From assembly GCA_003162425.1 (NCBI GenBank), contig PMOK01000168.1:997-64996 (forward strand): a stretch of DNA of 64,000 bases, given 5' to 3'. The position numbers and the translations under genes were made by a program. This stretch comes from Bryobacterales bacterium (GTDB taxonomy: Bacteria; Acidobacteriota; Terriglobia; Bryobacterales; Bryobacteraceae). Positions 3,143 to 63,766 of the stretch are shown in pieces. Under the pieces are notes generated by a model that was not told the origin of the DNA, ran no database searches, and saw nothing but the letters and a program-made list of their open reading frames with translations. Numbering within the stretch: position 1 is the stretch's first letter; every line of letters starts with the position of its first letter.

Positions 3143-3223
3143 ATGCGTTCGGTTTTACTTTTATTCTTAGGTGTGCCGATCCCCATCATTGTTTTGCTCG
3201 CATTGTTCACTCATCACTTTTGA
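3143..3223 (+). CDS. 26-aa hydrophobic micro-protein (below the ORF-track cutoff)
   Basis: ATG at 3143 preceded by AAGGAAGGAG. Encodes MRSVLLLFLGVPIPIIVLLALFTHHF*, 25 nt after the stop of the membrane-protein gene. Confidence 0.45.
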   Translation: MRSVLLLFLGVPIPIIVLLALFTHHF

Positions 3224-3837
3224 GGGTCATCCGATGCGAGCCGCTTCGGACCGTGTGTAGATGTCCGGTAAACCATAGCACAATTGTTCGGGGGCGCTCG
3301 GGCGGAATGGCCCGAACTCGTAAACTCGGCGGGCGCAATGTGACGATGACCGAACTGTGAAACGCGGCACTCGCAGCTTGAGACCCATTTGCAGTCACTC
3401 AACGAGGCGAACCTTAACCGACCTCACCGTTGGCTTGAGTTTGCACTATGGCCGGACACTTCGCTTCTGGAGATGCTGCAAACCTTTTACCAACATACGA
3501 TAGAGTCGAGTACTCGGTCCATGCGCTATTTCTCTGAAGGTGGCTTCCAACTTAGGCCGCCGACGAATTCCAGGCCGTCGCCCCGGGGTTTGGTTTTGAT
3601 TTTGAAACCACATCGGACCAGATAGATTCCGCCATACCTGAAAAACGCATACTGGGCGCCTCAGTATGGTTCGTTGCAGCGGAAAAGGAGTGGCGCGGAA
3701 GGGATCGTCGCAAATTCTCCTTAACGATGAAATAGTTCCCCGGCTTACCGGTCGGTCGTGCGGAGAGTTTCCCTGTAAAGGGCGAACTTTGCCTTCCCGC
3801 CGCTTCCTCCCGAGCGCATTGGTGATCGGCGCGCCCA

Positions 3838-12888: not shown

Positions 12889-15546
12889 ATGTCTCTGGCC
12901 CCCGGAGCCCACTTGGGACCCTATGAGATTCTTGCGCCCATCGGCGCAGGTGGTATGGGCGAGGTGTTTCGGGCTCGGGATACCAAGCTGGGCCGAAACG
13001 TCGCGCTGAAAGTGCTGCCCGAAGTCTTTGCCCACGATGCCGATCGGATGGCGCGCTTCGAGCGTGAAGCGCAGGTGCTGGCGTCGCTCAACCATTCCAA
13101 TATCGCGGCGATTTACGGACTGGAAGAATCGGACGGTATTCGCGCCCTGGTGATGGAACTGGTGGAAGGGCCGACGCTGGCGGAGCGGATCGGAGGGCGG
13201 CCCATGCCGCTGGAAGAAGCGCTGCCGATTGCAAAACAGATTGCGGAAGCGCTGGAGTACGCCCACGAAAAGGGGATCATCCACCGCGATCTGAAACCGG
13301 CGAACGTGAAACTGACCGTGGACGGCCACGTCAAAGTCCTGGACTTCGGGCTGGCGAAGGCGCTCGACCCACCGGCACAGGCGGCGGGCAATCCGTCCAT
13401 CTCACCAACCTTGACGGTGGAAGGAACGCGGGCGGGTGTGATTCTTGGCACCGCTGCCTACATGGCGCCGGAACAGGCTCGCGGTGCAGTGCTGGATAAG
13501 CGAGCCGATATCTGGGCTTTCGGCGTGGTGCTGTACGAGATGCTGACGGGCCACCAGCCGTTCGCAGGCGCGACTGTATCGGATACACTCGCCGCGGTGC
13601 TGAAAACGGAACCGAATCTTACGCAAGTTCCGGTGCAAGCACAGAAGCTTCTGCAACGGTGCCTCGAAAAAGATCCGAAGCGTCGCCTGCGCGACATCGG
13701 GGAAACTCGTTTTTTGTTGGAAGACGCGCCACCGCAAGGTGTGCCCGCGCGCGGAAGCAGCCAGTGGAAGATCGCGGCTGGGGTGTTGGCGGTCATGGCC
13801 ACGCTGGCCTTGTGGATGGCATGGCGGGCAACGCGACCCGTCAGCCAACCCCTGATCAGGCTGTCCGTGGAGCTGCCGGAGTTTGCTCTCCCACCAGAGT
13901 TGTCCCCAGGCGCCAGCGTCATCTTGTCACCGGACGGAAGCCGCATCGTGTATACGGGACACGCCACGGATCGTACTTCCCGGCTGTACACGCGCAAGTT
14001 CGACCAGGAGCAGGCTGTGCCGCTGGCCGGGACCGAAGACGCCTACGGTCCGTTCTTCTCACCGGACGGGCAAGCTGTCGGGTTTTTCGCGGGCGGGAAG
14101 CTGAAGAAGACTTCCGTCGACAGGGGTGGAGTTGTGGTGTTGTGCGATGCATCACAGGGCATCGGCGGGAGCTGGGGTGAGGACGGCAATATCATCGCGG
14201 CGCTAAATGGTTTTGACGGAATTCTCTCGCGAATACCTTCGGGTGGCGGCACGGTCGAGCCGGTGACGGAATTAAAGCCAGAGAGGAAGGAATACAAGCG
14301 CTGGCCGCAGGTGTTACCCGGAGCGCAGGTAGTGCTGTTTACAGCGATGAACATCGGTGGAGGGGCCACCATCGAGGCGCAGTCGCTGCGGACAGGCGAG
14401 CGGAAAATCCTCATGCGTGGAGGCTCCTACGGACGTTACGTGCCGACTGGGCATCTGCTGTACTTGCACCAGGGGACGCTGTATGCAGCGTCGATGGATG
14501 TGAAGCGCCTGGAGCTGACCGGACCGGCCGTGCCGGTGGTCGAAGAGGTGTTGAGCAGTGCGTCTTACGGATTCGCCCAGGCGGATTTCTCGCGGAGCGG
14601 AACGCTAGTGTACGTGCGAGGGAAACCAGCGAGGCAAACACTGGTGTGGCTGGACAGTACCGGCCATACGCAAACGCTTCGTGCTACGGCAACGGAATAT
14701 AACGGAACCGTTCGTTTTTCACCGGATGGCAAGCGGCTGGCAGTGAGTGTTACGGAAGGCGGCAATGGGAACGTGTGGGTGTACGAGTGGGAGCGGGATA
14801 CGTTCACCCGTCTGACCTTCACGCGGGCCTTTGAAGGTTTCCCGGTGTGGAGTCCTGACGGTAAGCACATGGCCTTCCTCTCGGACCGGCATGGAGAAGG
14901 TCTGCCGAATTTGTACTGGATACGGGCGGATGGCGCGGGGGAAGCGGTAAGGCTCACCCAAAGCAAGAACTTTCAGGTCCCGTTTTCGTTCTCGCCGGAT
15001 GGCAAGCGGCTGGCCTTTGCCGAACTGGATCGGCAGACGAATGGCGCCTTGTGGACGCTGCCTCTGGGAGAGATGGAAAGCGACCACCCGAAGCCAGGCA
15101 AGCCCGAGCCTTTTCTCGTGGCGCCGTTTAGTGAGCTTGGGCCAATGATCTCACCTGACGGCCGCTGGCTGGCATACCAGTCGAACCAGTCGGGACGCTA
15201 TGAGGTTTACGTACGGCCTTTTCTCAGACAGGGAGGGCAGTGGCAGATCTCGACAGGAGGTGGGGATTGGCCCGTCTGGTCGAAGAAGGGACCGGAATTG
15301 TTCTACCGGAGCAGCGAGGGCATGATGATAGCGAGCTACACGACGAACGGCGAAGCATTTGTGGCGAGCAAACCGCGGCTATGGGCCGCGAAGAAGGATC
15401 TTGGGGATTACTTCGATCTCGCGCCGGACGGAAAGCGATTCGCTCTGTTGCAGCCAGAAGCAGCGGAGCAGAAGGGTCCGCAGCACGTCACATTTCTGCT
15501 GAACTTCTTCGACGAACTACGCCGTCGCGCACCTGTTGGGAAATAA
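12889..15546 (+). CDS. Ser/Thr protein kinase with a TM segment and a PD40/TolB-like beta-propeller
   Basis: [39 protein letters not shown]; [20 protein letters not shown]. Repeated (F/L)SPDG(S/Q/K/R) blades follow. ATG 12889 is preferred over the track start at 12820. Confidence 0.95.
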
Positions 15547-51403: not shown

Positions 51404-52729
51404 TCACTGTTTTTCCTTCGTATCGAGACTCTTCTTCTTAAACACATTTAACTTGTTCCAAAAGTTTCTTTTCTTCTGGGTCGTAGCTGGCGATACACCG
51501 ACTTCTGCTCGTTCCGAGGCGCTCGCTTGGTTGACGTCTTGCCCGACGCTTGCTGTTGGGATAGTCAGCTTCGGGCTGGGTGTTGGCTCGGTTAGGTCAT
51601 GGTTCGATGTCTGAGCTGGTGGAGGTGGTTCGAATACACTGGCTTCCGCGGCGCGCTTCGAACCGTGTTTTTCTGCCGGCTTGGCGAGCCGCGGGGCTGT
51701 TCGCAGAGCAGTCTCCTTCCTGAAGACCGTAGTAGAGGTCGCGAAGGCCGGAGGCGAGATATGCAGGGTGTGCAACGGTATGATCGCAGACGGTGCAGGG
51801 TGGAATGGGTGGATGGCGGACGAAGCTACAAACGCCAAGATCAGACCGGTTACGATCGCGAGTCCGATGCCAAGAGCACTCTTGTGGGCCAGTGAAAATT
51901 CGGCTTTGACCGATTGCTCAAGCTGAGCAATGGAGTCCAGGAATTCATCGGCCGACTGATAGCGGCGTCGCGGATCTCTGGCCAGGGCACAGCGGATGAT
52001 CTTGTCCCATTGCGGTGACAGGCTCGGCTCAAGCTGACTGGGCGGCTGAGGGTCGCCCTCCGAGTCAGTTAGCACCGGCGCAAGCTTTCGGTTTGCTCCA
52101 AAGGGTTTTCGTCCGGTGAGAAGCTCATACAGGATGGCTCCGACGGAATAGAGGTCGGATCGCCGGTCTGGGTGGGTGGCGCCCTTCAATCGTTCGGGCG
52201 CCAGGTACGGCAGGGCGCCAAGTATCTCTCCGCAATTGGTCAACAGAGGATCGCTGAAAGCCTTCGAGAGTCCGAAATCACTCAGCTTCACTTCGCCGAC
52301 CGTGGTGATCATGACATTGGCAGGAGTTATGTCCCGATGCACGACGCCCTGTTGATGCACATAGCGAATCGCTAGCAGGATCTGCTTAATGTATCCGATT
52401 CCTCTCTCGAGAGGCAGGCGCCCGGCGCTAAGCATGCTTTCGAGCGTCTGCCCATTGATAAACTCCATCAACAGGATCAGCTGATTTTCCGAATGAAGCG
52501 CATTATAAAGGACAGCAATATTGGGATGGCTTAAACGGGCTAGGACCTGCAGCTCGCGCTCGAATCTCTTGATCTGGGACTCGCTTGCCAGTTCCGTGGA
52601 CAGAACCTTCATTGCCTCAGTTCGCTTGCTGAGGCGGTGTTCGACCTTGTACATTGGCCCCAGCCCGCCGACATCGAGCAGGCCAGTGATTTCGTACTCG
52701 CCGAATTTTTGTCCTACATGGAGATCCAC
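51404..52729 (-). CDS. Ser/Thr protein kinase with one TM segment and a Pro/Ser/Thr-rich tail
   Basis: AMKVL, HRDITPANVMI, DFGLSK, LPYLAPER; TM LGIGLAIVTGLILAFVASS. The glycine loop is atypical (LDVGGLGPMYKV). Confidence 0.9.
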   Translation of the reverse strand: MDLHVGQKFGEYEITGLLDVGGLGPMYKVEHRLSKRTEAMKVLSTELASESQIKRFERELQVLARLSHPNIAVLYNALHSENQLILLMEFINGQTLESMLSAGRLPLERGIGYIKQILLAIRYVHQQGVVHRDITPANVMITTVGEVKLSDFGLSKAFSDPLLTNCGEILGALPYLAPERLKGATHPDRRSDLYSVGAILYELLTGRKPFGANRKLAPVLTDSEGDPQPPSQLEPSLSPQWDKIIRCALARDPRRRYQSADEFLDSIAQLEQSVKAEFSLAHKSALGIGLAIVTGLILAFVASSAIHPFHPAPSAIIPLHTLHISPPAFATSTTVFRKETALRTAPRLAKPAEKHGSKRAAEASVFEPPPPAQTSNHDLTEPTPSPKLTIPTASVGQDVNQASASERAEVGVSPATTQKKRNFWNKLNVFKKKSLDTKEKQ

Positions 52730-52770
52730 GTGAGCATGTCCAAGTCGCCGGACTCCGAGTCCATTATTAA

Positions 52771-54408
52771 TTACTGTTCGCCGTTACTCAACCCCGCATG
52801 GAAATATCCGCGAGCAAGTTCGGGTTTGGCTTCTATCGCGAGCGTCCAGTAGGAGCGTGCTTGATCCTCGCGGCCGATAGCTTTGAGCACATGTCCAAGG
52901 TTCAGGAGAGCTTCTGGGAACTCGGGCTTTTGATTCAGTGCCTCACGATAGAGCACTGCCGCTTGCTCGTTCTTACCCAGTTTGTGCGACAGCAGTGCGC
53001 TGTTGTAAAGGATTTCCGCGGTCTTCTCGCCAAGGTCATGCAGGCGCAAGTGATGATCTAGCGCTTCTTGCGCATAATCGCGATCCAAAGCGATCGCCGC
53101 CAAGCCTCGCACGGCGTCAACACAACCCGGCTCGCGGTCTATTAACCGAATCAACACGTCCCGAGCGGCATCGTGCTGGTTGAGCTTCCAGAGAGCCATC
53201 GCCAAATTGAGCTCGGCCTCGCGCCAGTTTTTGCGTTTTTCTACACACGATTGGAAGGCGGCGCTGCTCGCAGCGTAGTCTCCGCGCCTCAGCTGCAAAT
53301 AGCCGAGACGAAACTCGGCCTCAACAAATTCCGGATGGTGAGAGACGATTCTTGCGTAAATCTTCTCAGCGTCGTCGACGTCGCCTTGCTGCTCGCGGAC
53401 CCACGCTAGTTGATATTGCAGGTCGCTCCGCTGGGGCGCTTGTTCCACCGCGCGCTCGAACGCGACGCGAGCACTCGTCAGATCTCCGATTTCCAAGTAA
53501 ACAGCACCCAGTTGAATGTGAGCGTCGGCCGAGTCCGGCCGTATCACCCGCGCCCGAACATATGACTGAATGGCGTCGTTGAAATTGCCTTGCCGCTGAC
53601 AGGCGAGCCCAAGATTAAACCAATGTTCGAATTCCTTCGGAGCGATTTGGGTGAGCTTCGCACAGAGACGTTGAGCTTGATCGACATCGTTGCGGGCAAA
53701 GGCCGCCGCCGCCAGACTTTCGAGAGCCACCTGATGATCGGGGCGCTGCGACAAAAGCTGCTCGGCGTATTTCCGAACCGTATCGTAGTCTCTCTTTTGC
53801 AGGCCCAGACTGATCAAATTCAGGAGAGCAGGCTCAAAATCGGGCGACAGCTGGAGTATCTTTTCGTAAAGCGCCTTTGCTTCATCGAAGCGGAGGAGCA
53901 ACTGGAGCGATACTGCTTTGCCAAACAGCGCCGGTTGATAGGACGGATCGGACCCGAGGCATTCTTCGAAGATCTTTATCGCTTCCGGGTATTCCTTTTG
54001 GTTTATCGTGCAGACGCCGATGGACGTTTTCGCCTCGATCCAGTTTGGATTCACCGCCAAGGCGCGTTTGAAATGCGGAATGGCTTCTTGGGTGCGTCCA
54101 AGATTCTGCAAAGCAATGCCGCTATTAAAGGAGATTTGCGCGTCGCCGGGCCCGGTCTCCAAAGCCTTGGAATAGTTTTCCCAGGCTTCGTCGAAGTGGC
54201 CTAATTCCAATTGGAGGTAACCGCGGGCCGCGAATACCTCGGCACTCCGGTTGCCGCTGTCTAGCGCAATCCCCAAGTCGCTTAATGCATTCTCGGATTG
54301 ACCAGCCAGGTGGTGTGTGACGGCCTTGGCGAGCGCACTGGATATTTCCTTGGCGTTCTGCATTTCTTTTATACCGGAGCTGGCCTTAACGACCTCTTCC
54401 TTTATCAT
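52771..54408 (-). CDS. TPR-repeat protein (545 aa), paralogue of 58952..60571
   Basis: About 13 TPR units and no signal peptide. Collinear with the other TPR protein from the N-terminus (..HHLAGQSENALSDL.. vs ..DHLNGNIEGALAKL..) to the C-terminus (..KPEFPEALLNLGHVL..KPELARGYF vs ..KPDFPEALLNLGNVL..KPELALGYY). Confidence 0.9.
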   Translation of the reverse strand: MIKEEVVKASSGIKEMQNAKEISSALAKAVTHHLAGQSENALSDLGIALDSGNRSAEVFAARGYLQLELGHFDEAWENYSKALETGPGDAQISFNSGIALQNLGRTQEAIPHFKRALAVNPNWIEAKTSIGVCTINQKEYPEAIKIFEECLGSDPSYQPALFGKAVSLQLLLRFDEAKALYEKILQLSPDFEPALLNLISLGLQKRDYDTVRKYAEQLLSQRPDHQVALESLAAAAFARNDVDQAQRLCAKLTQIAPKEFEHWFNLGLACQRQGNFNDAIQSYVRARVIRPDSADAHIQLGAVYLEIGDLTSARVAFERAVEQAPQRSDLQYQLAWVREQQGDVDDAEKIYARIVSHHPEFVEAEFRLGYLQLRRGDYAASSAAFQSCVEKRKNWREAELNLAMALWKLNQHDAARDVLIRLIDREPGCVDAVRGLAAIALDRDYAQEALDHHLRLHDLGEKTAEILYNSALLSHKLGKNEQAAVLYREALNQKPEFPEALLNLGHVLKAIGREDQARSYWTLAIEAKPELARGYFHAGLSNGEQ

Positions 54409-54492
54409 TCAGTTTCTCCTCTCACAGTGCGGCAATTACGCCGATTAGGTTTTCCCTTAAATCATCGGCTGAATCGTGCTAGTACTTCAGGG

Positions 54493-55623
54493 TTATGCTA
54501 CCGATACTTCGACCGATTCGCTTACCTGGCTCGAGGGAGCAAGCCGCAGAGTGTGGACCACTCGTCCTCCTTCGCGCAGCCTGGGTGCGCACCAATAGCG
54601 GCGTGTATACGAATTGATGCTTCCGCTCCAGATCAATAGGCCTTCCGGTAGCGCGATGCCAGGTAACGGCGTCTTGGGAGACATAGGCAAGGGCAGCATT
54701 TCGGATAACGCGGCTTGGGGAATCGGCTCTGTTTCCACAGACGGGTTGCCGCCTCTCAAGGGTTTGTCCAGCCCTGGCAAGAACGGCGCGATTGCTTCTA
54801 GCATCTCAACGGGCGCTAATAACGTGCGCGCGCCCTCGAGGGAGGGTTGAAGCTCAAAGGGTATCTCTGCTGATTCGCGAAGAAATCGGCGGCCGGGGAG
54901 AGCCGCGTCCACGCACGTATTCCATGGCGCGATCGAGGTTGGATTCGGTAAACGAACCGCCGCCGCCGATTCCGGCATGGGCATCGCAAAATGGAAGCCA
55001 TCAAACGACTTCAATAAAACTGTCAGCGAATGCCAAGGCCGCGGCGAAGGCAAGGCCAGCTCGCGTAAACCCTGCTTCGGCCGAATCGCCTTAGAACCTC
55101 CCGCTTGTGCTCGCAACTCCAGGGGCGATGGTTTACTTGGCAGGGGCTGGAACGGCTTCAGTGCCGCAGCCCGCCACGCTTCTGTCTGCGCATGTGGCTC
55201 GCAAGCCAAAGGCGGCGGTACGGGAAGCGCCGCACCCAGCAAACGGTCCCTTCGATCCTTCCGGCCCGGTGCACAGGCGAACTCGATCCCGCCCATTCCG
55301 CTGGTGCGAGGTGCGCAGTCGTTGCCGGGTTTGGCGTAACAGGGAGGCGCGGAAATATGCTGCTTCGGAACGAAGGGCGCAATCTCGACCCGTTCCGTAT
55401 GCAGCTCAGCGGGCGCAATCAGGAATACAAACAGCTCACCTTCCGGCTGCCCGGTTTTCCGCCTGAAATCGGCTGCCGCAATAAATTCAAAGACGGTTGA
55501 ACGGGGCGCGAAAGGTTGAGTTTGATTACGTTCGTGGCCTGACTGGGACGCCGGAACCAGCCATATGGCCACGGCTGGGCAAATTTTCATCGTATCGCTC
55601 GCTGGAATGGTGGTAGGCAGCAT
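54493..55623 (-). CDS. uncharacterised Pro/Ala-rich protein (376 aa)
   Basis: Long ORF with an ATG start, divergent from 55891. No known motif. The overlapping + strand ORFs are Arg/Gly-rich antisense-type. Confidence 0.5.
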   Translation of the reverse strand: MLPTTIPASDTMKICPAVAIWLVPASQSGHERNQTQPFAPRSTVFEFIAAADFRRKTGQPEGELFVFLIAPAELHTERVEIAPFVPKQHISAPPCYAKPGNDCAPRTSGMGGIEFACAPGRKDRRDRLLGAALPVPPPLACEPHAQTEAWRAAALKPFQPLPSKPSPLELRAQAGGSKAIRPKQGLRELALPSPRPWHSLTVLLKSFDGFHFAMPMPESAAAVRLPNPTSIAPWNTCVDAALPGRRFLRESAEIPFELQPSLEGARTLLAPVEMLEAIAPFLPGLDKPLRGGNPSVETEPIPQAALSEMLPLPMSPKTPLPGIALPEGLLIWSGSINSYTRRYWCAPRLREGGRVVHTLRLAPSSQVSESVEVSVA

Positions 55624-55890
55624 AGGGTACCGGGAGAGGTTGCTCCTCAGGTCTTACATCGGTGGGGTGAGCGCTTTTCTGTAGAACCCTAGCGGCTTGC
55701 GGTCTTGTAGCGGCAGCGCTTACGGGTCTAAGGTTTTTTTCCTATATCGAAAGGTCCGCCGAGCAGACGATCTGAAGTAAGTCAGCGAATCATCTCAAAG
55801 CCTTAGTCAGCGATCGGGCGCCGTGGAACTTCCCGGTCGGCAAAATTGAGGGTTCGCCTCAGTCCACATGCAAGAACGGCAGAACATCTG

Positions 55891-58890
55891 ATGGAGTGCT
55901 TGTATTGCAGGGCAACCTTAGGCCTGTTATCACGGGGCGAATTTTGTAATAACAAACACCGGGATCAATGGCGTGAGCAGCAAGCCGAATTATCTATTCA
56001 GCGCCTCATAGAGTCATTCAGCTATGACAAGACTGCCGCGGAGAAATCCGGGTCAGGGTCTGTATCTGTTCTCGATTGGACATCGAGAGATGCCGTTCCT
56101 CCTGCGGCGCTATTCGCGCATCGCGATTCGCGCGAGGAAATAAAGCCTCCAGTCACCCGCGCAATCCGAGACGCCTCCGAAAAACGAGGGGTTTTCGACC
56201 ACGGTTCAGATTCCGACCGCCAAGCGCCGCCAGACGCGGGCTTCATCTCGACAATCGACCTTAACAAGGGTTTGCATCTTCCTGTTTTCAACCGGCGTCC
56301 GGCGCTGTCAGAGAAGGGCCTCAACAACGGCTTCGACTCGAACCTAATCAACAGAGTACTTCGGGCCATAGACGCGCGCTACGAGCGGAGACGATTTATC
56401 CGGCCGCTAAGCGTCTCCTCAACCGAGGGATGCCAAGCACGCCTATTTGGCCATTCGGCTCCTAGGCCATTCCTGGATTTGTCTGACGGTCAGAACCTGT
56501 GCAAGGCGCGCCCGGTCCAGCTAAGGAGCCTCGCAACTTTCACCTGTGCCGTACCTGGCCGGTCGGTTCAGGCCTGTGCATTACAACCAGAGGCCTCGCA
56601 ACTAACCCTGTACAGTGGTCCGCAGTCAACCTATGCAGTCCCGCCAATGGCTCTGCTTCAGCGTGAGACACTGCCAACTCCTGTGACCGTGCCTTCGAAA
56701 ACCATCGTGGCGAAGTTGGCGCGCTTGGCGCTCGGAGCTGCAATCGAGGCGCGCTTGGCGCTCGGAGCCGCAATCGAGCCGTTGCATTCCCCGGCGCCCA
56801 GCGGTTTCCAACCGCTGCCTGCTGGCCAGATCCTACGGGGTCAGTTTGCGCAGCTACAGTTTCAAGCTTGTAAAGTCGCGCACCCTGTGCTCCACCCCTG
56901 CGAGCTAGAGCCGCGACCCTGGCAAGCGAGGGTGCCCACTGCGGCCGTTGGATCGTATGAAGTGCGGCCGGTGCATTTGCATACGCGTGAGCTCGAAAGT
57001 CGCTCCACCCGCACGCAGTGTCCGAAAATTGGTCAGGCGAGCCTGCCGCACTCCGCCGCCACACAGCCGGTTGGGTACACTCAGGCGCCACAAGCCTTCG
57101 CTCTCACGGTAGGGCGCACCAATCCAGCGCCGCGCAATTGCGGCTTCTACGCATTGGCACCGGAGCGGATTGTATCAACCCGAGCGGCATCCCTAGGTGC
57201 GTCAGGCCCAGCTATGCCGCAGCAGCCGCCCGCACAGCAACTCCAGCCGAGACAGTTTGGTTTTGCATGCTGTCGAGTCCCCGTCACTCCGGTCGAAGGT
57301 TTCGCGCGACATCGAGAGAAGCCGACGGCCCTTCAGAGCGCGGGCAAACGAAGTTCTGAAGTGAGCCTGACGGCGCTGTGTAGGCGCGAGATGCCAGAGC
57401 AGACCGCGCCGTTAATCCCATACCCGAAGATTCGCCCGGCGAGTTTGCCGCGTCCAGAAGCCTCGCGGCCGCAGCATTCCAGCACCCAGCCGCGAGGCGT
57501 GGCAATTTCGATCGGGCGCCTAAGTTCCAGGCTGTTCGATTGGGCGGACCGCGCGCTAGCGATCAATCAGAGCATACCAGTCCAGACAGAGCCTACAACT
57601 CTACCGCGCATCGCCTCCGAACTACCCATCGCCTCGCCGCGCCAGAAGGTCCGTGGGACAGTGTTACCGGTCCAGTCGAGACAGCGGGAATTTCAGGTGT
57701 TTCGACTTTCCGCCGCGGCGCTTCAGGTCTTGCCGGTAAAGGCGGAAAATAAGGTGTGCCGCGCATCCCAACTCACCTATGAAGTGCGGCCAATGGCTCT
57801 CCTCCGACGGACCGCGGACCGCCAGCCCGTGGATGCATGGGATCTGAAGATCCCCCTGACCAGCTTGTTAGGCCCGATCAACGGGGTCTCGCGCGTGACT
57901 GCGGCGACACGAACATCCCAGGGGGCACCCGTTTCGCTGGTACAGTTGAGTCTGGCCCTGCCCAATTGCACCTTTCAAGCAGTGGCGACCAGGCCGAGTA
58001 CCCCGGCTCATGCCAAAACGACGACGCAACCCTACGCTAGTTCGCCGCCCAGCCTCCAGGCCGGCGCGGCGCAAGTCCAGCGAAGAAAGCTAGATTTTAG
58101 GCTTTCTCAAGTCTTCACTACTACCCGAACGGCGCAGATCGTCGCGTCCAGGCCAGAGAAGCTGGAAACCAAGGAATACGCTGCATCGAGCCAGCTCCGA
58201 CAACCGCGGCGCATCGCGTTACGCAGTCAAACGGCGACGCGCAAGCCGGTATTTGCCTGGCACATTACATCTAACCCGGTCTTGGCACGCCCAACCACTC
58301 CGCCTCTGCCATCGGCCGTGCTGATCCGAGCACAGCAAGCGTTCGGAATCACTAGCGGGCGGACGGCGCCGATGCTCCCTAACTGCGGCTTCCATGGGCT
58401 AGCCACCCGTTTTTGCGCATCACCGATGGACTCGCAAATCCGGACTACCCAGCTAGGCTCCAGCCAGACTGTGGCGATTCGTATCTATACCAGAGATCTT
58501 CGCCTGACGTCCGCAGCCTCAATGTTATTCGACTCCCCTGTTTTTCTGGGAGCCGAGCTAAGCTCACAGCGGCCGAAATTCGTAGCCAAAGGTTTCGACT
58601 TTGACTACAAGATTGGTGTTCCATCTCGACGGCTGCCATCTTGGGATCCCGAGCGGACGCCATGCCTCCAATTTGCCGCCAATCCGAACAGTGCGAAGGT
58701 CGCTCTGGTTGGATCTTCCCGCATGGCTCGCACCGCAACTTGGGCTCTGCCTGAAACAAGACTGCATTTACAGTTACGTGCCAGAGAGATCGCAGCAGCG
58801 GCGTACCGTTCCACCGGAACCAAGCCGGCTGGCGCCAAGGGCGACCTGAAGTGGGTGGCCCACAAAATACCCTGGGTGCCGATGCCATGA
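55891..58890 (+). CDS. uncharacterised large repeat protein with an N-terminal Cys-rich (zinc-ribbon-like) element
   Basis: 3-kb ORF; ATG 55891 (MECLYCRATLGLLSRGEFCNNKHRD). Internal degenerate repeats: TY(A/E)V(P/R)P(M/V).L at track residues 262, 370 and 644; NC(G/T)F at 431, 707 and 846. Confidence 0.7.
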   Translation: MECLYCRATLGLLSRGEFCNNKHRDQWREQQAELSIQRLIESFSYDKTAAEKSGSGSVSVLDWTSRDAVPPAALFAHRDSREEIKPPVTRAIRDASEKRGVFDHGSDSDRQAPPDAGFISTIDLNKGLHLPVFNRRPALSEKGLNNGFDSNLINRVLRAIDARYERRRFIRPLSVSSTEGCQARLFGHSAPRPFLDLSDGQNLCKARPVQLRSLATFTCAVPGRSVQACALQPEASQLTLYSGPQSTYAVPPMALLQRETLPTPVTVPSKTIVAKLARLALGAAIEARLALGAAIEPLHSPAPSGFQPLPAGQILRGQFAQLQFQACKVAHPVLHPCELEPRPWQARVPTAAVGSYEVRPVHLHTRELESRSTRTQCPKIGQASLPHSAATQPVGYTQAPQAFALTVGRTNPAPRNCGFYALAPERIVSTRAASLGASGPAMPQQPPAQQLQPRQFGFACCRVPVTPVEGFARHREKPTALQSAGKRSSEVSLTALCRREMPEQTAPLIPYPKIRPASLPRPEASRPQHSSTQPRGVAISIGRLSSRLFDWADRALAINQSIPVQTEPTTLPRIASELPIASPRQKVRGTVLPVQSRQREFQVFRLSAAALQVLPVKAENKVCRASQLTYEVRPMALLRRTADRQPVDAWDLKIPLTSLLGPINGVSRVTAATRTSQGAPVSLVQLSLALPNCTFQAVATRPSTPAHAKTTTQPYASSPPSLQAGAAQVQRRKLDFRLSQVFTTTRTAQIVASRPEKLETKEYAASSQLRQPRRIALRSQTATRKPVFAWHITSNPVLARPTTPPLPSAVLIRAQQAFGITSGRTAPMLPNCGFHGLATRFCASPMDSQIRTTQLGSSQTVAIRIYTRDLRLTSAASMLFDSPVFLGAELSSQRPKFVAKGFDFDYKIGVPSRRLPSWDPERTPCLQFAANPNSAKVALVGSSRMARTATWALPETRLHLQLRAREIAAAAYRSTGTKPAGAKGDLKWVAHKIPWVPMP
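56719..56778 (+). repeat. 30-bp tandem duplication inside the large ORF
   Basis: GCGCGCTTGGCGCTCGGAGC(T/C)GCAATCGAG x2, which reads ARLALGAAIE ARLALGAAIE. Confidence 0.9.
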
Positions 58891-58951
58891 GACATCCAAG
58901 TTCTATCCATAAAGCATATGTACGAATAGTCCGATACTCTAAGGGGCTACT

Positions 58952-60571
58952 ATGAAACTGATTCGAAGACAAAAAGACTCAACTCCCGCGGAAAACCATC
59001 CAGAGCCGGTAAATGGCGCAACGATTCCATTGGCTCAGGCGCTCGCCGATCATTTAAACGGAAATATCGAAGGCGCGCTGGCCAAGCTCAATTCCATAGA
59101 CGGCGAAGACGGCAACATCGCCGATGTGGTTGCCGCCAAGGCGCATCTACTGTTGCGTGCCAACCGCTTCGAGGAAGCGCAGAGACAATTCGCGCGGCTG
59201 ATCTCCATCAAGCCGTTGCTCGAAGCTGCTCACTATCATTCCGGATTTTGTCTGTACCAGCTCGGTGAGTATGAAGCGGCCGTGGGTGCGTTCGAGGAAA
59301 GCCGCAAGCTGGCGCCAAGCGGGGCCGACACGCAGATAGCCCTGGGGAATTGTTTGTTGAACCTCAATCGCCCTGGGGACGCTGTGTCCACATTTGAGAA
59401 GTGTCTTGCGGAGCATCCCGATAATGAAAGCGCCATGGTGGGTAAAGCGGTAGCGCTCCAATCAGTCGGCGATATCGAAGCGGCTTCGCGTGTATCCGGC
59501 CAGCTTCTGGAACGAAGTTCGCCTTCGGCAGAATGCCTGGCAAACTTGACCTTGTTGGGCCTGCAGAATTCGAATTTCGATTTGGTTCGAGCTGCCGCCG
59601 ATCGTCTTCTCAAGTTGGACCCCAATTCGGAGATCGCCCTTCAGGGACTCGGCGCTGCCGGCCTGGCGGTGGAAGAGTTTAAGGTTGCAGCGCAGTATTA
59701 CGAAAAGCTGGTCGAACTGCATCCCACGAATTACGATTATTGGTTAAACCTGGGCGTTGCGCGGCACCGCGTTGGAAATCATGACGGCGCCGCCGAAAGC
59801 TATCAAAAGGCGTTGCAGATTCGTCCCGAGGGCAGTTCGGCCTACGTAAACCTGGGACTTCTCTACCAGGAGCGAGGTGACGCCGCGCGGGCGGCCAATG
59901 CATTGGAGCAAGCTCTTCGGATTGCTCCGGAGCGCGATGACATTCGATATGACGCCGCCATCGCTCTCGATGAATGCGGTGAAACCGAGAAAGCCGCCGA
60001 CATGTACAGGGCGCTGCTGCAAACGAACGAGAACATGACGGGCGCCTGGTTCCGCCTGGGCGCGATGTACCTAAGATCAGGCGAGTTCAATACAGCAGTG
60101 CAGTGTTTTGAGAAGTGTGTACAGTTACGCCCAGATTGGATCGAAGCCGAAATTAACCTCGCCGTCGCCTATGGAAAACAAGGTCAAAAGGAACAGGCGG
60201 AACGCGTGCTTCAGAACACACTGACCCACGAACCTGATAGCGTGGAACTGATCCGCCTGCTTGCGGCGCTCTCGCTCGAACAGAATCAATTCAAAGCCGC
60301 GATTCGATACCACCTCCGGCTTCTCGAACTAGGGGATCAATCGGCTGAGGTACGGCACAATCTGGGCGTTCTTTACCAAAATCAGGGGGAGAGTGCGAAG
60401 GCCGAATCGGAATACAGGGATGCCCTGGCGCTCAAACCAGACTTTCCGGAAGCCCTCTTGAACTTGGGAAACGTACTCAACGCCACCGGCCAAAAGGACG
60501 CGGCGCGAGATCATTGGGTGCGCGCGCTGCAACTGAAACCAGAACTGGCGCTTGGTTACTACTTGGCGTAA
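58952..60571 (+). CDS. TPR-repeat protein (539 aa), paralogue of 52771..54408
   Basis: See 52771..54408. Confidence 0.9.
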   Translation: MKLIRRQKDSTPAENHPEPVNGATIPLAQALADHLNGNIEGALAKLNSIDGEDGNIADVVAAKAHLLLRANRFEEAQRQFARLISIKPLLEAAHYHSGFCLYQLGEYEAAVGAFEESRKLAPSGADTQIALGNCLLNLNRPGDAVSTFEKCLAEHPDNESAMVGKAVALQSVGDIEAASRVSGQLLERSSPSAECLANLTLLGLQNSNFDLVRAAADRLLKLDPNSEIALQGLGAAGLAVEEFKVAAQYYEKLVELHPTNYDYWLNLGVARHRVGNHDGAAESYQKALQIRPEGSSAYVNLGLLYQERGDAARAANALEQALRIAPERDDIRYDAAIALDECGETEKAADMYRALLQTNENMTGAWFRLGAMYLRSGEFNTAVQCFEKCVQLRPDWIEAEINLAVAYGKQGQKEQAERVLQNTLTHEPDSVELIRLLAALSLEQNQFKAAIRYHLRLLELGDQSAEVRHNLGVLYQNQGESAKAESEYRDALALKPDFPEALLNLGNVLNATGQKDAARDHWVRALQLKPELALGYYLA

Positions 60572-61240
60572 ATTATTGCACTTTGTGGTGCAAGCAACTG
60601 GATGAACGATGTGTGCGCACGGCTCTCCTTGGCAATTTCAGGACGAAGCCGGGCCGGGCATGCGTGCCGCATCGCAGCATCGCGCCGCGTACGGTCTGTT
60701 CCGGAAGTAGTGTGAGCGCAGCGCCGCCAGATGAGGCCCAGATGAATGACCGGTCACGAAAATAGGTCGGGCGTTGCCGATCACAGAAACGTTTTGTCGG
60801 CGACCGTGTGTAATCGCCTCAGCCTTTGCCGATTGAAGGTGGTGCGCGGCCAGACTGTTTCAAGCTCGTCTTGGTGAGACCGGGCGTGCCGTTTTCCGGC
60901 GGTTTGCAGCCGCGCTTTGGGAGCTGCTTGGAAACAAACTGACGAGTTCGTCTCAGGAAATCCGGTTTGTCCTGGCGATGCGAGAGCTATTGCAGCGGCT
61001 GGATGTGTTCTGTTTTGCGTGTACGATGCAGCGCGGTGACTTCGACAGCTTTATCTATCGCTCTGGGTCGTGGGAATGGTGTGCCCGGCCGTCTGTTTGG
61101 CGACCGTTTGCTTTCGTTCTTGCTTGGCTTAAAAGTCTACAACTCGGCTAAAAGCCTTAAATCAAAGAACGCGCTTACTTACCTAACACCGTAGATTCCA
61201 AGGATTACACCTTCCACTCAATTACGTCGATAGCTACTCC

Positions 61241-63766
61241 GTGGGCTTATCGACCACAGCCAGGGTCTACATCGGGGGCGTCATCTGCGCCGGGCTGAGT
61301 ATCTTGCTCGGAGCGAACCTCCACTGGGCTTCCACCGATTATGCTCGCTTTCTCGCCTATCTTCTTCTAACCGCGGTCGCATCCGGCATGAAGGTCGGGC
61401 TGCCCGGCATCACCGGGACGATATCAGTGAGCTTTGTTCTGGTGCTGTCCTGCGTTATCCAGTTCTCCTTGGGTGAGGTGGTGGATATTGCAGTGATTTC
61501 CGCTTTAGTCCAATGCCTCTGGAAAGCGAAAGAGCGGCCCCGGCTCATTCATCTCTTATTCACCACAAGCTTGATGGTCTTAAGTACCGCGATGGCGTAC
61601 GCGGCGTACCATGTTTGCCGGCCTCGCTTCGGCCTGGTCATCTCCATCGCCTCCGCCACTTGTGCTTATTTCCTTAGCAACACCACCTCGGACGCGGGCG
61701 TGATTGCTTTAACGGAGCATAAGCCGCTGATCGCGACTTGGAAAAACTTCTATCTCTGGTCGTTTCCTTACTACCTGCTAGGGGCCTCAATCGTTGCTTC
61801 GATCAATTATGTGACGAAGTTCAATTGGGAGATCGCTCTCGCCGTCCTGCCGATGATCTTCATCATCTATCGTTCTCATACTCTGCACTTGAGGCAGCTG
61901 GAAGAGGAGAAACGGAACGCGGAGACAATGGCCGCGCTCCATCTGCGCACCATTGAGACACTCGCGCTTGCGATCGAAGCAAAGGATCAGACTACCGCCG
62001 ATCATTTGAAGCGGGTTCAGATCTATTCCAGAGAGCTCTCCCAGGAATTGGGTTTGTTGGAAGACGATAAGCTGGCGCTGCAGGCTGCATCGATTCTCCA
62101 TGATGTGGGAAAAATAGCGGTTCCAGACTACATCATTTCTAAACCGGGACGGCTTAGCCCGGACGAGTTCGAGAAAATGAAGATTCATCCGATTGTTGGC
62201 GCCGAGATCGTCGATTTCATCGACTTCCCCTATCCGGTGGCGGCCATCGTACGAGCCCATCATGAGAAGTGGGATGGATCTGGATATCCCTTCGGCTTAC
62301 GCGGCGATCAGATTCCCATTGGAGCTAGGATACTCTCGGTGGTGGACTGCTTCGACGCTCTGGCGTCGGACCGTCAGTACCGCAAAGCGCTGCCACTGGG
62401 CCAAGCCATGGCGGTGGTCGCTCATGAAGCCGGAAAGAGCTTCGATCCACAGATCGTCGAACTGCTGGGCCGGCGCTACATGGAAATTGAGGAGTTAGCC
62501 CAAGCCAAGCCATCACGCGTTCAACCGAACCTATCGCTGGATGTGAGGGTGGTGCGGGGTAGCTCGCCCGATGCGGGCTTTGAGTCCGCCGCTTCACGGA
62601 AGGAGGCGAATTCATTAAATCCTCAGGCCGGCTGGGCCGGCGATCGTGTCAAGGTAAACGCATTCGACGGGGTTATAGGCACGCTGGGGATATCACTTAG
62701 CGTGACGGAAACACTCGGCGTCCTGTGCTCCCGCATGAACGCGCTCGTCTCGGCTGATGCCGTTTCGATATACCTACTGGAGGGCGGCACACTTGTTCCC
62801 AAATATGTCCACGGCGAAAATTTCAAATTCTTGACATCCTTGCGCATCGGCTTGGGCGAAGGAGTCACCGGCTGGGTGGCGGAGAACCACAAGGCCATTC
62901 TGAACGGAAACCCGGCGGTAGAACCCGGCTATCGTGCCGGCCCGTCCAGCGCGCTCAATTCAGTGCTCGCCGTTCCGCTACAGACCAGTTCGGGAACCAT
63001 CGGCGTGCTGGCTCTATACCGGACAAAGAAAGACGCGTTTTCTCGCGATAACCTGGAGGATCTAATGGCGGTGAGCGATAAAATCTCGCTCGCAGTTGAG
63101 ACTTCCTTAGAGCAGGAACCCAGCAAGACCTTTACCAACGTGGATGAGCTCACAGGTTTACCGGATACGAGGGCGCTGTTTTCAAACATCTCGGCAGAAA
63201 TAGCGAAGCGGCGCGGCACCACTTCCACTCTGACGGTCTTGCTCTGCGGTCTGGAGGGAGTCGCCGACGTTCACGAATCCTTCGGGCGAGAAGCGGCGGA
63301 GAAGACGCTTCAGTTCGTGACGCGGCGTTTTCGCGAGAGGTGCCGGGAAGTCGATTACCTCGCCTGGCGGGGCGGAGATGATTTTGTGTTCGTGCTTCCT
63401 GGCTTGCCGGCAGAGGCAGTCGATGGGCGGATCAGCACGCTGACGCATCTGGTCCGCGAAGCGGGTCTGGAGCTCTGGGCCGCCGACCTTTTATCACTCA
63501 GCGCGGGAGTAGTCACTTTTCCCTTAAACGGCGATACACCTGAGACCCTGATCACGGAAGCCGAAAAAAGAATGTTTGCCGCTAGACGATCGAAAGTTCA
63601 GAGCGAGGCTAGCTCAGCATCCGAGAATCTCGTACGCTTGACGGAATCACCCAAGCAGCAAGATGGCCGGCCACTGGAAGGGATTATCTCCCTTCGCGAC
63701 GCGGTGAATCGGCTAAAGCTCAGGGAAGACCCTGTGGAGACGAGCGCGCGTAACCATCTTCCGTAA
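61241..63766 (+). CDS. membrane-anchored HD-GYP / GAF / GGDEF-domain protein (c-di-GMP turnover)
   Basis: About 7 N-terminal TM helices. HDVGKIAVPD and HHEKWDGSGYPFGL (HD-GYP). A GAF-like middle. C-terminal DELTGLPDTRAL..RGGDDFVFVL (GGDEF domain with GGDDF). GTG start. Confidence 0.9.
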   Translation: MGLSTTARVYIGGVICAGLSILLGANLHWASTDYARFLAYLLLTAVASGMKVGLPGITGTISVSFVLVLSCVIQFSLGEVVDIAVISALVQCLWKAKERPRLIHLLFTTSLMVLSTAMAYAAYHVCRPRFGLVISIASATCAYFLSNTTSDAGVIALTEHKPLIATWKNFYLWSFPYYLLGASIVASINYVTKFNWEIALAVLPMIFIIYRSHTLHLRQLEEEKRNAETMAALHLRTIETLALAIEAKDQTTADHLKRVQIYSRELSQELGLLEDDKLALQAASILHDVGKIAVPDYIISKPGRLSPDEFEKMKIHPIVGAEIVDFIDFPYPVAAIVRAHHEKWDGSGYPFGLRGDQIPIGARILSVVDCFDALASDRQYRKALPLGQAMAVVAHEAGKSFDPQIVELLGRRYMEIEELAQAKPSRVQPNLSLDVRVVRGSSPDAGFESAASRKEANSLNPQAGWAGDRVKVNAFDGVIGTLGISLSVTETLGVLCSRMNALVSADAVSIYLLEGGTLVPKYVHGENFKFLTSLRIGLGEGVTGWVAENHKAILNGNPAVEPGYRAGPSSALNSVLAVPLQTSSGTIGVLALYRTKKDAFSRDNLEDLMAVSDKISLAVETSLEQEPSKTFTNVDELTGLPDTRALFSNISAEIAKRRGTTSTLTVLLCGLEGVADVHESFGREAAEKTLQFVTRRFRERCREVDYLAWRGGDDFVFVLPGLPAEAVDGRISTLTHLVREAGLELWAADLLSLSAGVVTFPLNGDTPETLITEAEKRMFAARRSKVQSEASSASENLVRLTESPKQQDGRPLEGIISLRDAVNRLKLREDPVETSARNHLP

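Follow-up and report, generated by a model that had tools for sequence, protein, structure and literature searches.

The window analyzed here, a 64,000-nucleotide stretch of contig PMOK01000168.1 from a Bryobacterales bacterium, contains two divergently transcribed genes, X and Y, each directly followed by a gene for a long tetratricopeptide repeat (TPR) protein, TPR1 and TPR2, respectively. This core, TPR1<-X<->Y->TPR2, recurs in soil Bryobacterales (Acidobacteriota), having been found in more than 12 independent metagenome or metagenome-assembled genome (MAG) lineages, the named ones all being Bryobacterales. The same order is repeated across many contigs that diverged independently, far more than chance would produce. 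Gene order indicates that the conserved unit is these four genes, with a kinase gene and a cyclic di-GMP (c-di-GMP) gene that flank them in the window being incidental neighbors. Underlying the cassette, we predict, is a two-gene module comprising a disordered partner and then a 15-TPR protein, of which Y->TPR2 is one member. We propose that the TPR superhelices bind linear motifs of the partners encoded upstream, with Y as a multivalent scaffold whose zinc-ribbon module docks to a further component, a reading to which we assign a probability of roughly 45%.

Conservation of the four-gene cassette

The cassette was identified at loci L001/L002/L006, L003/L004, L005, L008, L010, L011, L012/L013, L014, and L016-L018, with further copies at L020, L024, L035, L037, and L058, and one at L007 in which Y and TPR2 are split across frames. 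The order was TPR1<-X<->Y->TPR2 in every contig long enough to show it, and GTDB species representatives gave three matches, all of them Bryobacterales MAGs. Homologs of both orphans exist in other lineages, where the adjacency of X to TPR1 and of Y to TPR2, put forward in the original prediction as the repeating element, is strictly conserved; X is encoded directly upstream of TPR1, and Y directly upstream of TPR2, in every contig long enough to test. In agreement with the earlier view that X and Y could be assigned to no family, neither protein gave a match in Pfam, NCBIfam, PADLOC, or PDB.

Within the window, a Ser/Thr kinase gene, TPR1, and X lie on the minus strand, followed by Y, TPR2, and an HD-GYP/GGDEF gene on the plus strand, and the coordinates originally given for these six open reading frames (ORFs) were all correct. 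TPR1 (52771-54408, minus strand) encodes 545 aa, X (54493-55623, minus strand) encodes 376 aa, and TPR2 (58952-60571, plus strand) encodes 539 aa. Y (55891-58890, plus strand) encodes 999 aa when read from ATG 55891, with TTG 55846 as an alternative start. The ATG had been preferred from the outset, and the alignment supports it, as M-x-C-L-Y-C begins every ortholog at that point; the divergent gap between X and Y is therefore 267 bp.

Evidence that X and Y are genes

Patterns of substitution indicate that X and Y are real genes. In their annotated frames, the ratio of nonsynonymous to synonymous substitution rates (dN/dS) across distant pairs was 0.22-0.40 for X and 0.27-0.59 for Y, with 0.05-0.10 for TPR1 and 0.14-0.16 for TPR2. 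The more distant pairs were used because comparison with the closest relative, L005, was uninformative (dS of 0.04-0.09). TPR1 orthologs were 82-91% identical where the paired X proteins were only 48-68% identical, and TPR2 orthologs were 79-86% identical where the paired Y proteins were only 41-55% identical; between the window and L001, identities were 87% for TPR1, 79% for TPR2, 57% for X, and 41% for Y. The TPR proteins are thus under strong purifying selection, and X and Y evolve three to six times faster, keeping only short conserved blocks.

At two loci, L007 (4548-9647) and L008 (1183-4146), Y is split over several frames while X and TPR1 are intact, TPR2 also being split in L007. These splits could be sequencing errors or real pseudogenization of the Y arm.

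Features of X and Y

Both orphans had been described as rich in Pro, Ala, and Arg, and their compositions confirm this (X: P 13.8%, A 12.2%, R 7.2%; Y: A 12.4%, R 9.8%, P 9.6%). Their codon composition is unusual, with a G+C content at second codon positions (GC2) of 0.54-0.55.

X has 26 homologs at 44-94% identity. Its AlphaFold2 model is without secondary structure and has a mean predicted local distance difference test (pLDDT) score of 36. Two blocks are conserved in the alignments. The first, at aa 181-218 (54970-55083, minus strand), consists of invariant or near-invariant columns and reads RPKQ[AG]LRELxLPSPRPWHSLxxLWxSFxGFHFAxPxxE. The second, at aa 325-363 (54535-54651, minus strand), reads L..GLxIWxGxxNSYxRRxxxxPRLREGGRxVHTLxLxP, and a remnant of it (NSY/FVRR) is recognizable in remote X-like ORFs of L029-L031. 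The alignment of X contained no Cys/His module, and a sequence scan found no transmembrane (TM) segment or signal peptide.

Y has nine full-length homologs at 35-95% identity. The protein is basic (pI 10.6, net charge +60), and its AlphaFold2 model has a mean pLDDT of 28, with helices only at residues 21-43, 964-973, and 982-992; as for X, the sequence scan revealed neither a TM segment nor a signal peptide. Three parts of the protein are notable. The first is an N-terminal module at aa 1-45 (55891-56025, plus strand), in which a zinc-ribbon-like knuckle, M-x-C-L-Y-C-x12-C-x3-H, precedes the helix predicted at aa 21-43. Its four putative ligands are invariant (C3-x2-C6-x12-C19-x3-H23), and the module probably binds zinc. 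Searched in isolation, it matched no Pfam family at E values up to 10.

The second site is an array of internal repeats of about 100 aa, all on the plus strand, each carrying YEVRPxxLxxRE and, about 60 aa further on, PNC(G/T)F(H/Y/Q)ALA. With a repeat hidden Markov model (HMM), copies were detected at aa 233-331 (56587-56883; independent E value [iE] of 6e-21), aa 341-445 (56911-57225; iE 9e-39; YEVRPxxLxxRE ... PRNCGFYALAP), aa 615-720 (57733-58050; iE 3e-38; YEVRPMALLRRT ... LPNCTFQAVA), and aa 755-860 (58153-58470; iE 1e-36; ... LPNCGFHGLA). A degenerate copy, third in order, lies at aa 478-579 (57322-57627) and scored an iE of 9e-12 with an HMM built without it. In five of six pairs of repeat sub-alignments, hhalign gave probabilities of 94-97% with E values of 1e-7 to 1e-11, the pairing of repeats 1 and 5 reaching 66%. 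Copy number varies from about three to seven among orthologs.

The third site is the C-terminal tail, (D/E)L(K/R)WVAxK(I/V)PWxPMP (58843-58887, plus strand), with invariant residues L986, W988, V989, A990, K992, W995, P997, and P999, and it is kept in distant Y-family members.

Within Y, we also observed a perfect in-frame 30-bp tandem duplication (56718-56778), encoding ARLALGAAIE twice. Among Y orthologs, it is shared with the 95% relative P0001 and no other, indicating that repeat and indel turnover in Y is ongoing.

The paired TPR proteins

TPR1 and TPR2 matched the Pfam families TPR_1 and TPR_2 at E values of 1e-51 to 1e-53. That the two are collinear paralogs, as first proposed, is upheld by an alignment of 513 aa with 36% identity and zero gaps (E = 1e-110). 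Each consists of 15 uninterrupted 34-aa repeats (aa 22-531 in TPR1) plus a short C-terminal cap. The conserved Pro and Asn residues sit on a strict 34-residue lattice, and no indel disturbs the 34-aa register between TPR paralogs of 33-44% identity. Of the TPR consensus W4-L7-G8-Y11-A20-F24-A27-P32, residues A20, F24, A27, and P32 are conserved, and Asn at position 6 is kept in many repeats. Within orthologs, the most conserved sites are helix-A positions 2, 5, 6, 9, 12, and 13 (mean of 0.95 for TPR1 and 0.87 for TPR2), with exposed helix-B positions being less conserved (0.77 and 0.70, respectively). In TPR proteins, these helix-A positions line the concave ligand-binding groove. Both proteins are acidic (net charge of -15 for TPR1, which has a pI of 5.6, and -21 for TPR2), and the sequence scan found no TM segment or signal peptide in either. 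As export signals are lacking from all four products of the cassette, X, Y, TPR1, and TPR2 are predicted to be cytoplasmic.

The closest natural PDB relative of TPR1 and TPR2 was the OGT TPR superhelix (E = 2.5e-35, over one ~300-aa stretch), far outscored by engineered consensus TPRs (E = 9e-117). In NCBIfam, TPR1 and TPR2 scored 120 and 140 bits with LcrH/SycD (TIGR02552; cutoff 104.8) and 78 and 88 bits with SctY (NF052415; cutoff 70), these scores being sums over three to four repeat matches of 106- to 136-position profiles along 540 aa. For PilW/PilF (TIGR02521; cutoff 154 bits), TPR1 reached 154.7, summed over four stretches, and TPR2 142.5, below the cutoff. Scores with PrsT (TIGR02917) were 219 and 220 bits, under the cutoff of 312, and matches to LapB were partial (75 and 62 bits against a cutoff of 363). 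We judge these NCBIfam matches to be generic, with cutoffs passed only through summed repeat matches, and place TPR1 and TPR2 within the TPR superfamily and not with OGT, PrsT, LcrH/SycD, PilW, or LapB.

Two of these families were also considered by context and rejected. PrsT is a ~900-aa lipoprotein linked to exosortase genes of the XrtA/PEP-CTERM type; besides the score below cutoff, TPR1 and TPR2 have no signal peptide or lipobox, and there is no exosortase gene in the conserved flanks. PilW/PilF is a ~250-aa TPR lipoprotein found in a pilus biogenesis context, and TPR1 and TPR2 have no lipoprotein signal and no conserved pilus genes beside them.

A wider zinc-ribbon/TPR module

The original prediction interpreted the cassette as an inverted duplication of an orphan-plus-TPR unit. 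This stands for the TPR half, which is duplicated, but X and Y are not detectable paralogs: BLASTP, relaxed BLAST, and the Y repeat HMM run against X yielded nothing, and hhalign gave a probability of 0.06%. A local mirror-image event is also contradicted. In a rough neighbor-joining tree, TPR2 groups with the TPRs of soluble zinc-ribbon partners from other lineages, and TPR1 falls among the TPRs of TM-type partners, as does a 53-63%-identical group in which each TPR follows a remote X-like ORF of ~300 aa. These placements indicate that the TPR duplication is old. Viewed this way, the window cassette resembles a head-to-head pairing of two modules from a single family, and not a recent inverted duplication.

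A recurring two-gene unit, orphan then TPR, had nonetheless been rightly anticipated. In all six further loci checked, the gene directly downstream of a zinc-ribbon partner encodes a 530-555-aa homolog of TPR1 and TPR2. Three of these partners are of the TM type (P0114 in L063, P0081 in L064, and one in L040) and three are soluble (L039, L043, and L050). The downstream homologs are collinear with TPR1 and TPR2 at 37-44% identity, mostly with zero to one gaps and with up to seven for the L043 TPR against TPR2; in L063, there is a 4-bp overlap between the TPR gene and the stop of its partner. The pairs sit among housekeeping genes, including trpB/F/C, serA/serC, acs, glnD, and a gene for an S1-domain (rpsA-like) protein. 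It is these six loci that point to the two-gene module as the underlying unit.

The breadth of the module was gauged by an exhaustive profile search with Y over 1.84 billion representatives, which returned 155 matches, about 16 of them Y proper. Most of the others cover only profile positions 1 to ~45-120, corresponding to the Cys/His module and helix, and more than 100 representatives share only this N-terminal module with Y. In long relatives (580-1195 aa), the module is followed by a long Pro/Ala-rich region, and most then have a single TM helix, some 200 aa from the C-terminal end, with an ectodomain beyond it. None of these long relatives contained a Pfam domain, and the ectodomain matched nothing in Pfam or PDB. 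That the N-terminal module is homologous was confirmed by hhalign between Y and other long Bryobacterales proteins (probability 95-98%, E values of 5e-8 to 4e-13), and X gave no match to the wider zinc-ribbon groups by the same method. Two of the relatives, from a Bryobacteraceae MAG and a Candidatus Solibacter usitatus MAG, are annotated as hypothetical proteins.

We define the module by an N-terminal M-x-C-L-(Y/H)-C...(F)C-x3-H, a long low-complexity region without a predicted fold, and a gene for a ~540-aa collinear 15-TPR protein immediately downstream on the same strand. The Y/TPR2 arm has all three features, and the X/TPR1 arm has the unstructured region and the downstream TPR gene but not the Cys/His module.

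Several partners carry further elaborations. P0054 and P0055 each contain two copies of the Cys/His module, at aa 3 and at about aa 163-175. In the soluble partner of L043 (4749-7796), a different motif, P-G-Y-x-P-x-x-R-A-L-L-R-P-P-x-H-x-E, is repeated in tandem at least six times; repeat-bearing partners are therefore general in the module, although the motif is not that of Y. In L064 (1218-5672), from a Bryobacteraceae MAG, the pair of membrane-anchored partner and TPR protein adjoins Robl_LC7 (MglB-like) and secretin genes, which could hint at a link to motility/polarity or pilus machinery or could be coincidence.

Candidate motifs shared between partners found no significant support. A YEVRP HMM missed class-3 partners, TM-type partners, and X, and so gave no support to a likeness noted by eye between YEVRPMALLRR and PGYVPLDRALLRPP. 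The Y tail (DLKWVAxKIPW) and the juxtamembrane ADLKWVALGLPL of P0088-type proteins align by position, though not significantly (E values of 0.07-2), and their likeness is no more than a lead.

The divergent control region

Between X and Y, the divergent control region (55624-55890) contains four conserved DNA blocks, at about 55660-55689, 55729-55755, 55765-55794, and 55865-55890. Their identity to L001/L003 is 77-84%, against synonymous sites that differ at about half of positions, and they are conserved even where X is only 45-50% identical. A structured RNA was considered and rejected, as RNAalifold on both strands gave six to seven pairs with no compensatory change and no Rfam family was found in the gap. 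There was no sigma-70-like consensus match inside the gap, the sole match of the scanned stretch lying within the Y coding sequence, and scans for sigma-70 promoters and intrinsic terminators performed no better than on shuffled sequences. The gap most likely holds shared promoters or operator sites for co-regulated divergent transcription.

Proposed mechanism

We suggest that the four-gene cytoplasmic cassette would act as two divergent operons, X->TPR1 and Y->TPR2, sharing the conserved control region. Each TPR protein would coil into a superhelix, and conserved linear motifs of the protein encoded by the preceding gene would be bound in its concave groove. The repeats of Y would make it a multivalent scaffold able to recruit several acidic TPR2 molecules, and the zinc-ribbon module would dock the complex to a further partner. 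The binding proposal draws on strict gene linkage, the constraint on helix A, the fast evolution and apparent lack of fold of the partners, and the complementary charges of Y (+60) and of TPR2 and TPR1 (-21 and -15).

Some observations count against this mechanism. Neither X nor Y is strongly hydrophilic, with grand average of hydropathy (GRAVY) values of -0.14 and -0.30, and their low pLDDT scores come from shallow AlphaFold2 alignments (25 sequences for X and nine for Y), so these models are consistent with disorder without proving it. No motif common to X and Y was found, though their TPR partners are paralogous, nor was a YEVRP-type motif found in the partners of related TPRs from other lineages; if the groove does bind a motif, it is one not conserved across the wider module. 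Finally, no third gene is conserved beside the cassette, the flanks being housekeeping or variable, which leaves no functional handle.

It is possible, though doubtful, that the pairing of a zinc-ribbon/disordered protein with a 15-TPR solenoid represents an undescribed cytoplasmic scaffold that organizes some higher-order assembly, for instance a condensate or a platform at a cell pole or associated with the envelope. Such a scaffold, seen so far only in Bryobacterales, would be membrane-anchored in some versions and soluble, multivalent, and fast-evolving as X/Y, and the window cassette would be a lineage-specific fusion of two modules under one control region.

Alternative explanations

An alternative is that Y and its zinc-ribbon relatives are regulators, either anti-sigma-like or TM signaling proteins or else nucleic-acid-binding proteins, with the TPR protein as a co-regulator or stabilizer; in the anti-sigma version, the N-terminal zinc module would sequester a transcription factor. 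Y is very basic, and the strongly conserved divergent control region suggests tight regulation. Its membrane-anchored relatives are built like zinc-binding anti-sigma (ZAS) and other single-pass signaling proteins, a long linker joining the cytoplasmic Cys/His module to one TM helix with an ectodomain beyond. Y itself, however, has no TM helix, and its module has C-x2-C-x12-C-x3-H and no Pfam match, lacking the H-x3-C-x2-C of ZAS, which are encoded next to a cognate ECF sigma gene. No sigma factor gene was present in any examined locus, no other DNA-binding gene is conserved near the related loci, and X lacks a zinc module, yet its TPR partner is equally conserved. We therefore regard a regulatory role as unlikely.

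More improbable still is a role for TPR1 and TPR2 as dedicated chaperones or export adaptors, holding X and Y in an unfolded state until they are secreted or deposited at the surface, by analogy with the TPR class II chaperones of the type III secretion system (T3SS). X and Y do look unfolded and evolve fast, as is typical of exported or surface proteins, and the LcrH/SycD and SctY scores exceed their cutoffs. Those scores are nevertheless sums over three to four repeat matches, the cassette has no conserved secretion-system neighbors, a signal peptide is missing from both X and Y, and the N-terminal zinc ribbon of Y argues for the cytoplasm. Identity with the T3SS chaperones was likewise rejected: LcrH/SycD-type chaperones have ~110-170 aa and three TPRs and are encoded in a T3SS locus next to translocator genes, whereas TPR1 and TPR2 have 540 aa, and no T3SS genes were found in the window region or at related loci.

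The original prediction had gone further and read the locus as a mirror-image duplication of an orphan-plus-TPR unit wired to two signaling outputs, Ser/Thr phosphorylation and c-di-GMP turnover. The outermost of the six genes are indeed what they were said to be. The kinase gene (51404-52729, minus strand) matches Pfam Pkinase at an E value of 3e-50, with one hydrophobic segment or predicted TM helix near aa 288, and the opposite arm ends in a membrane HD-GYP (HD_5)/GAF/GGDEF protein (61241-63766, plus strand; Pfam) with hydrophobic segments N-terminal to its domains. The exact layout occurs in the window and its very close relatives L005, L016, and L017, and the kinase start lies just 41 bp beyond the TPR1 stop, making co-transcription possible in the window lineage. 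TPR scaffolds for Ser/Thr kinases also have precedent, with PknG as an example (PMC8546545).

Across lineages, the wiring does not hold. A kinase and/or HD-GYP gene stands beside the cassette only where the TPRs are ~94-99% identical (L005, L014-L017, L035, and L049). The kinase adjoins TPR1 only in L005 and L014-L017 (TPR1 identity of at least 96%) and is absent downstream of TPR1 in 11 other lineages, while the HD-GYP/GGDEF gene adjoins TPR2 only in L005, L016, L017, L035, and L049 and is absent beside it in L001, L003, L012, L018, L046, and L052. Altogether, these neighbors are missing in L001, L003, L007, L008, L011, L012, L018, L020, L022, L023, L046, and L052, and in at least 11 lineages without them, the available flank was sufficient (1.6-8 kb). 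In other lineages, the neighbors are instead PepSY_TM, SBBP, 5'-3' exonuclease, Fer2/FAD, PAS-HisKA, and DUF6152 genes. Because the kinase and HD-GYP genes are limited to near-identical relatives, two signaling outputs are not a property of the system. X and Y, moreover, are not paralogs, and TPR1 and TPR2 fall in different old clades. The synteny comparison thus largely refutes the two-output reading, which we now hold to be very improbable.

Three observations concern the flanks themselves. In L012/L013, DUF6152 genes bracket the cassette on both sides (2070-2474 and 13032-13457), which may mean that a DUF6152 region received the cassette as an insertion or was duplicated along with it. About 0.8 kb downstream of TPR1 in L027, from a distant lineage, the opposite strand carries a 38%-identical HD-GYP-type match (3159-3776); such genes are common, and this is probably coincidence. 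In the window, the HD-GYP gene begins 669 bp beyond TPR2, and the spacer includes a variable ~385-bp segment (~60696-61085) that is also in L016, is absent from the 90% relative L005, and has no credible ORF; an indel is one possibility, a small mobile or non-coding element another.

We give almost no credence to X and Y being spurious or decaying ORFs in a GC-rich spacer between two true TPR genes: although GC2 is unusual, dN/dS against the closest relative is high (0.59-0.62), structure is not predicted, and frame-shifted copies occur in L007 and L008, these last are assembly or MAG contigs in which frameshifts could be sequencing error, and ~360-380 codons of X and 970-1200 of Y are open in all lineages at 28%-95% identity, with whole-codon alignment gaps, dN/dS consistently below 1, and motifs and a Cys/His module that are invariant. 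The remaining probability, beyond the readings named, goes to something else.

Comparison with known systems

No family described in Pfam, NCBIfam, PADLOC, or PDB accommodates X, Y, or the N-terminal Cys/His module. In the PADLOC search for anti-phage defense, the TPR proteins gave only weak, generic TPR matches, and assignment to a known defense system was rejected. We take the (E)FC(S/N)xxH stretch of the Y module to resemble TRASH/zf-FCS zinc fingers, whose pattern is C-x2-C-x(n)-(F)C-S-x2-C and which were rejected as a family since there is no Pfam match at E values up to 10 and the last ligand is His, not Cys.

The nearest parallel for the proposed binding mode is OGT/SPINDLY. In OGT, substrate peptides that are extended and disordered are accommodated along the concave side of the superhelix, and this is the mode we propose for TPR1 and TPR2, which share with OGT/SPINDLY a long uninterrupted TPR superhelix and Asn at TPR position 6. 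Unlike these enzymes, TPR1 and TPR2 have no GT41 catalytic domain, ending after TPR 15 and the cap (aa 545 and 539) and matching only TPR families in Pfam, and the likeness is at the level of the generic TPR consensus only. LbcA (PA4667) of Pseudomonas aeruginosa, a periplasmic lipoprotein that acts as TPR adaptor of the CtpA protease and presents substrates to its partner, is similar in length (540 aa) and gave a single collinear PDB match of ~450 aa (E = 3.5e-15). TPR1 and TPR2, however, have no signal peptide or lipobox, and no CtpA-like protease gene is linked to them.

LapB (YciM) likewise unites TPR repeats with a small zinc-binding module that work as a single unit at the cytoplasmic face of the membrane. 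There, the zinc module is a C-terminal rubredoxin-type C4 within LapB itself, whereas here it is a C2-CH module on a separate protein from the TPRs, and TPR1 and TPR2 lack an N-terminal TM helix.

For Y, we draw an analogy, and only that, with CsoS2 of alpha-carboxysomes, a very basic protein of ~900-1000 aa with little structure and variable motif-bearing repeats that serves as a multivalent assembly scaffold. Y resembles it in size, basic charge, little predicted structure, and internal repeats of variable number. Y nevertheless has no Pfam or NCBIfam similarity to CsoS2, no shell or Rubisco genes are nearby, its partner is a TPR protein, and its zinc-ribbon module has no CsoS2 counterpart.

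A TPR solenoid with a disordered client is familiar in kind, as in OGT substrates and class II chaperones, and a basic repeat scaffold recalls CsoS2. A literature search found nothing on a module of a zinc-ribbon/disordered protein and a 15-TPR protein, and both the module and the four-gene cassette appear to be undescribed so far.

Acidobacteriota are among the most abundant soil bacteria, and to our knowledge almost nothing is known of their cell biology. The present analysis corrects a tempting reading of the cassette as a signaling hub for the adjacent kinase and c-di-GMP enzyme. It also turns two hypothetical proteins into a defined module, with an N-terminal Cys/His domain found in more than 100 protein clusters, a disordered partner, and a dedicated 15-TPR protein that is unusually strongly constrained. 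If the interaction between TPR protein and partner is true, the module would provide a clear case in bacteria of a long TPR superhelix paired with a fast-evolving, multivalent disordered protein, and it would offer a handle on a Bryobacterales process.

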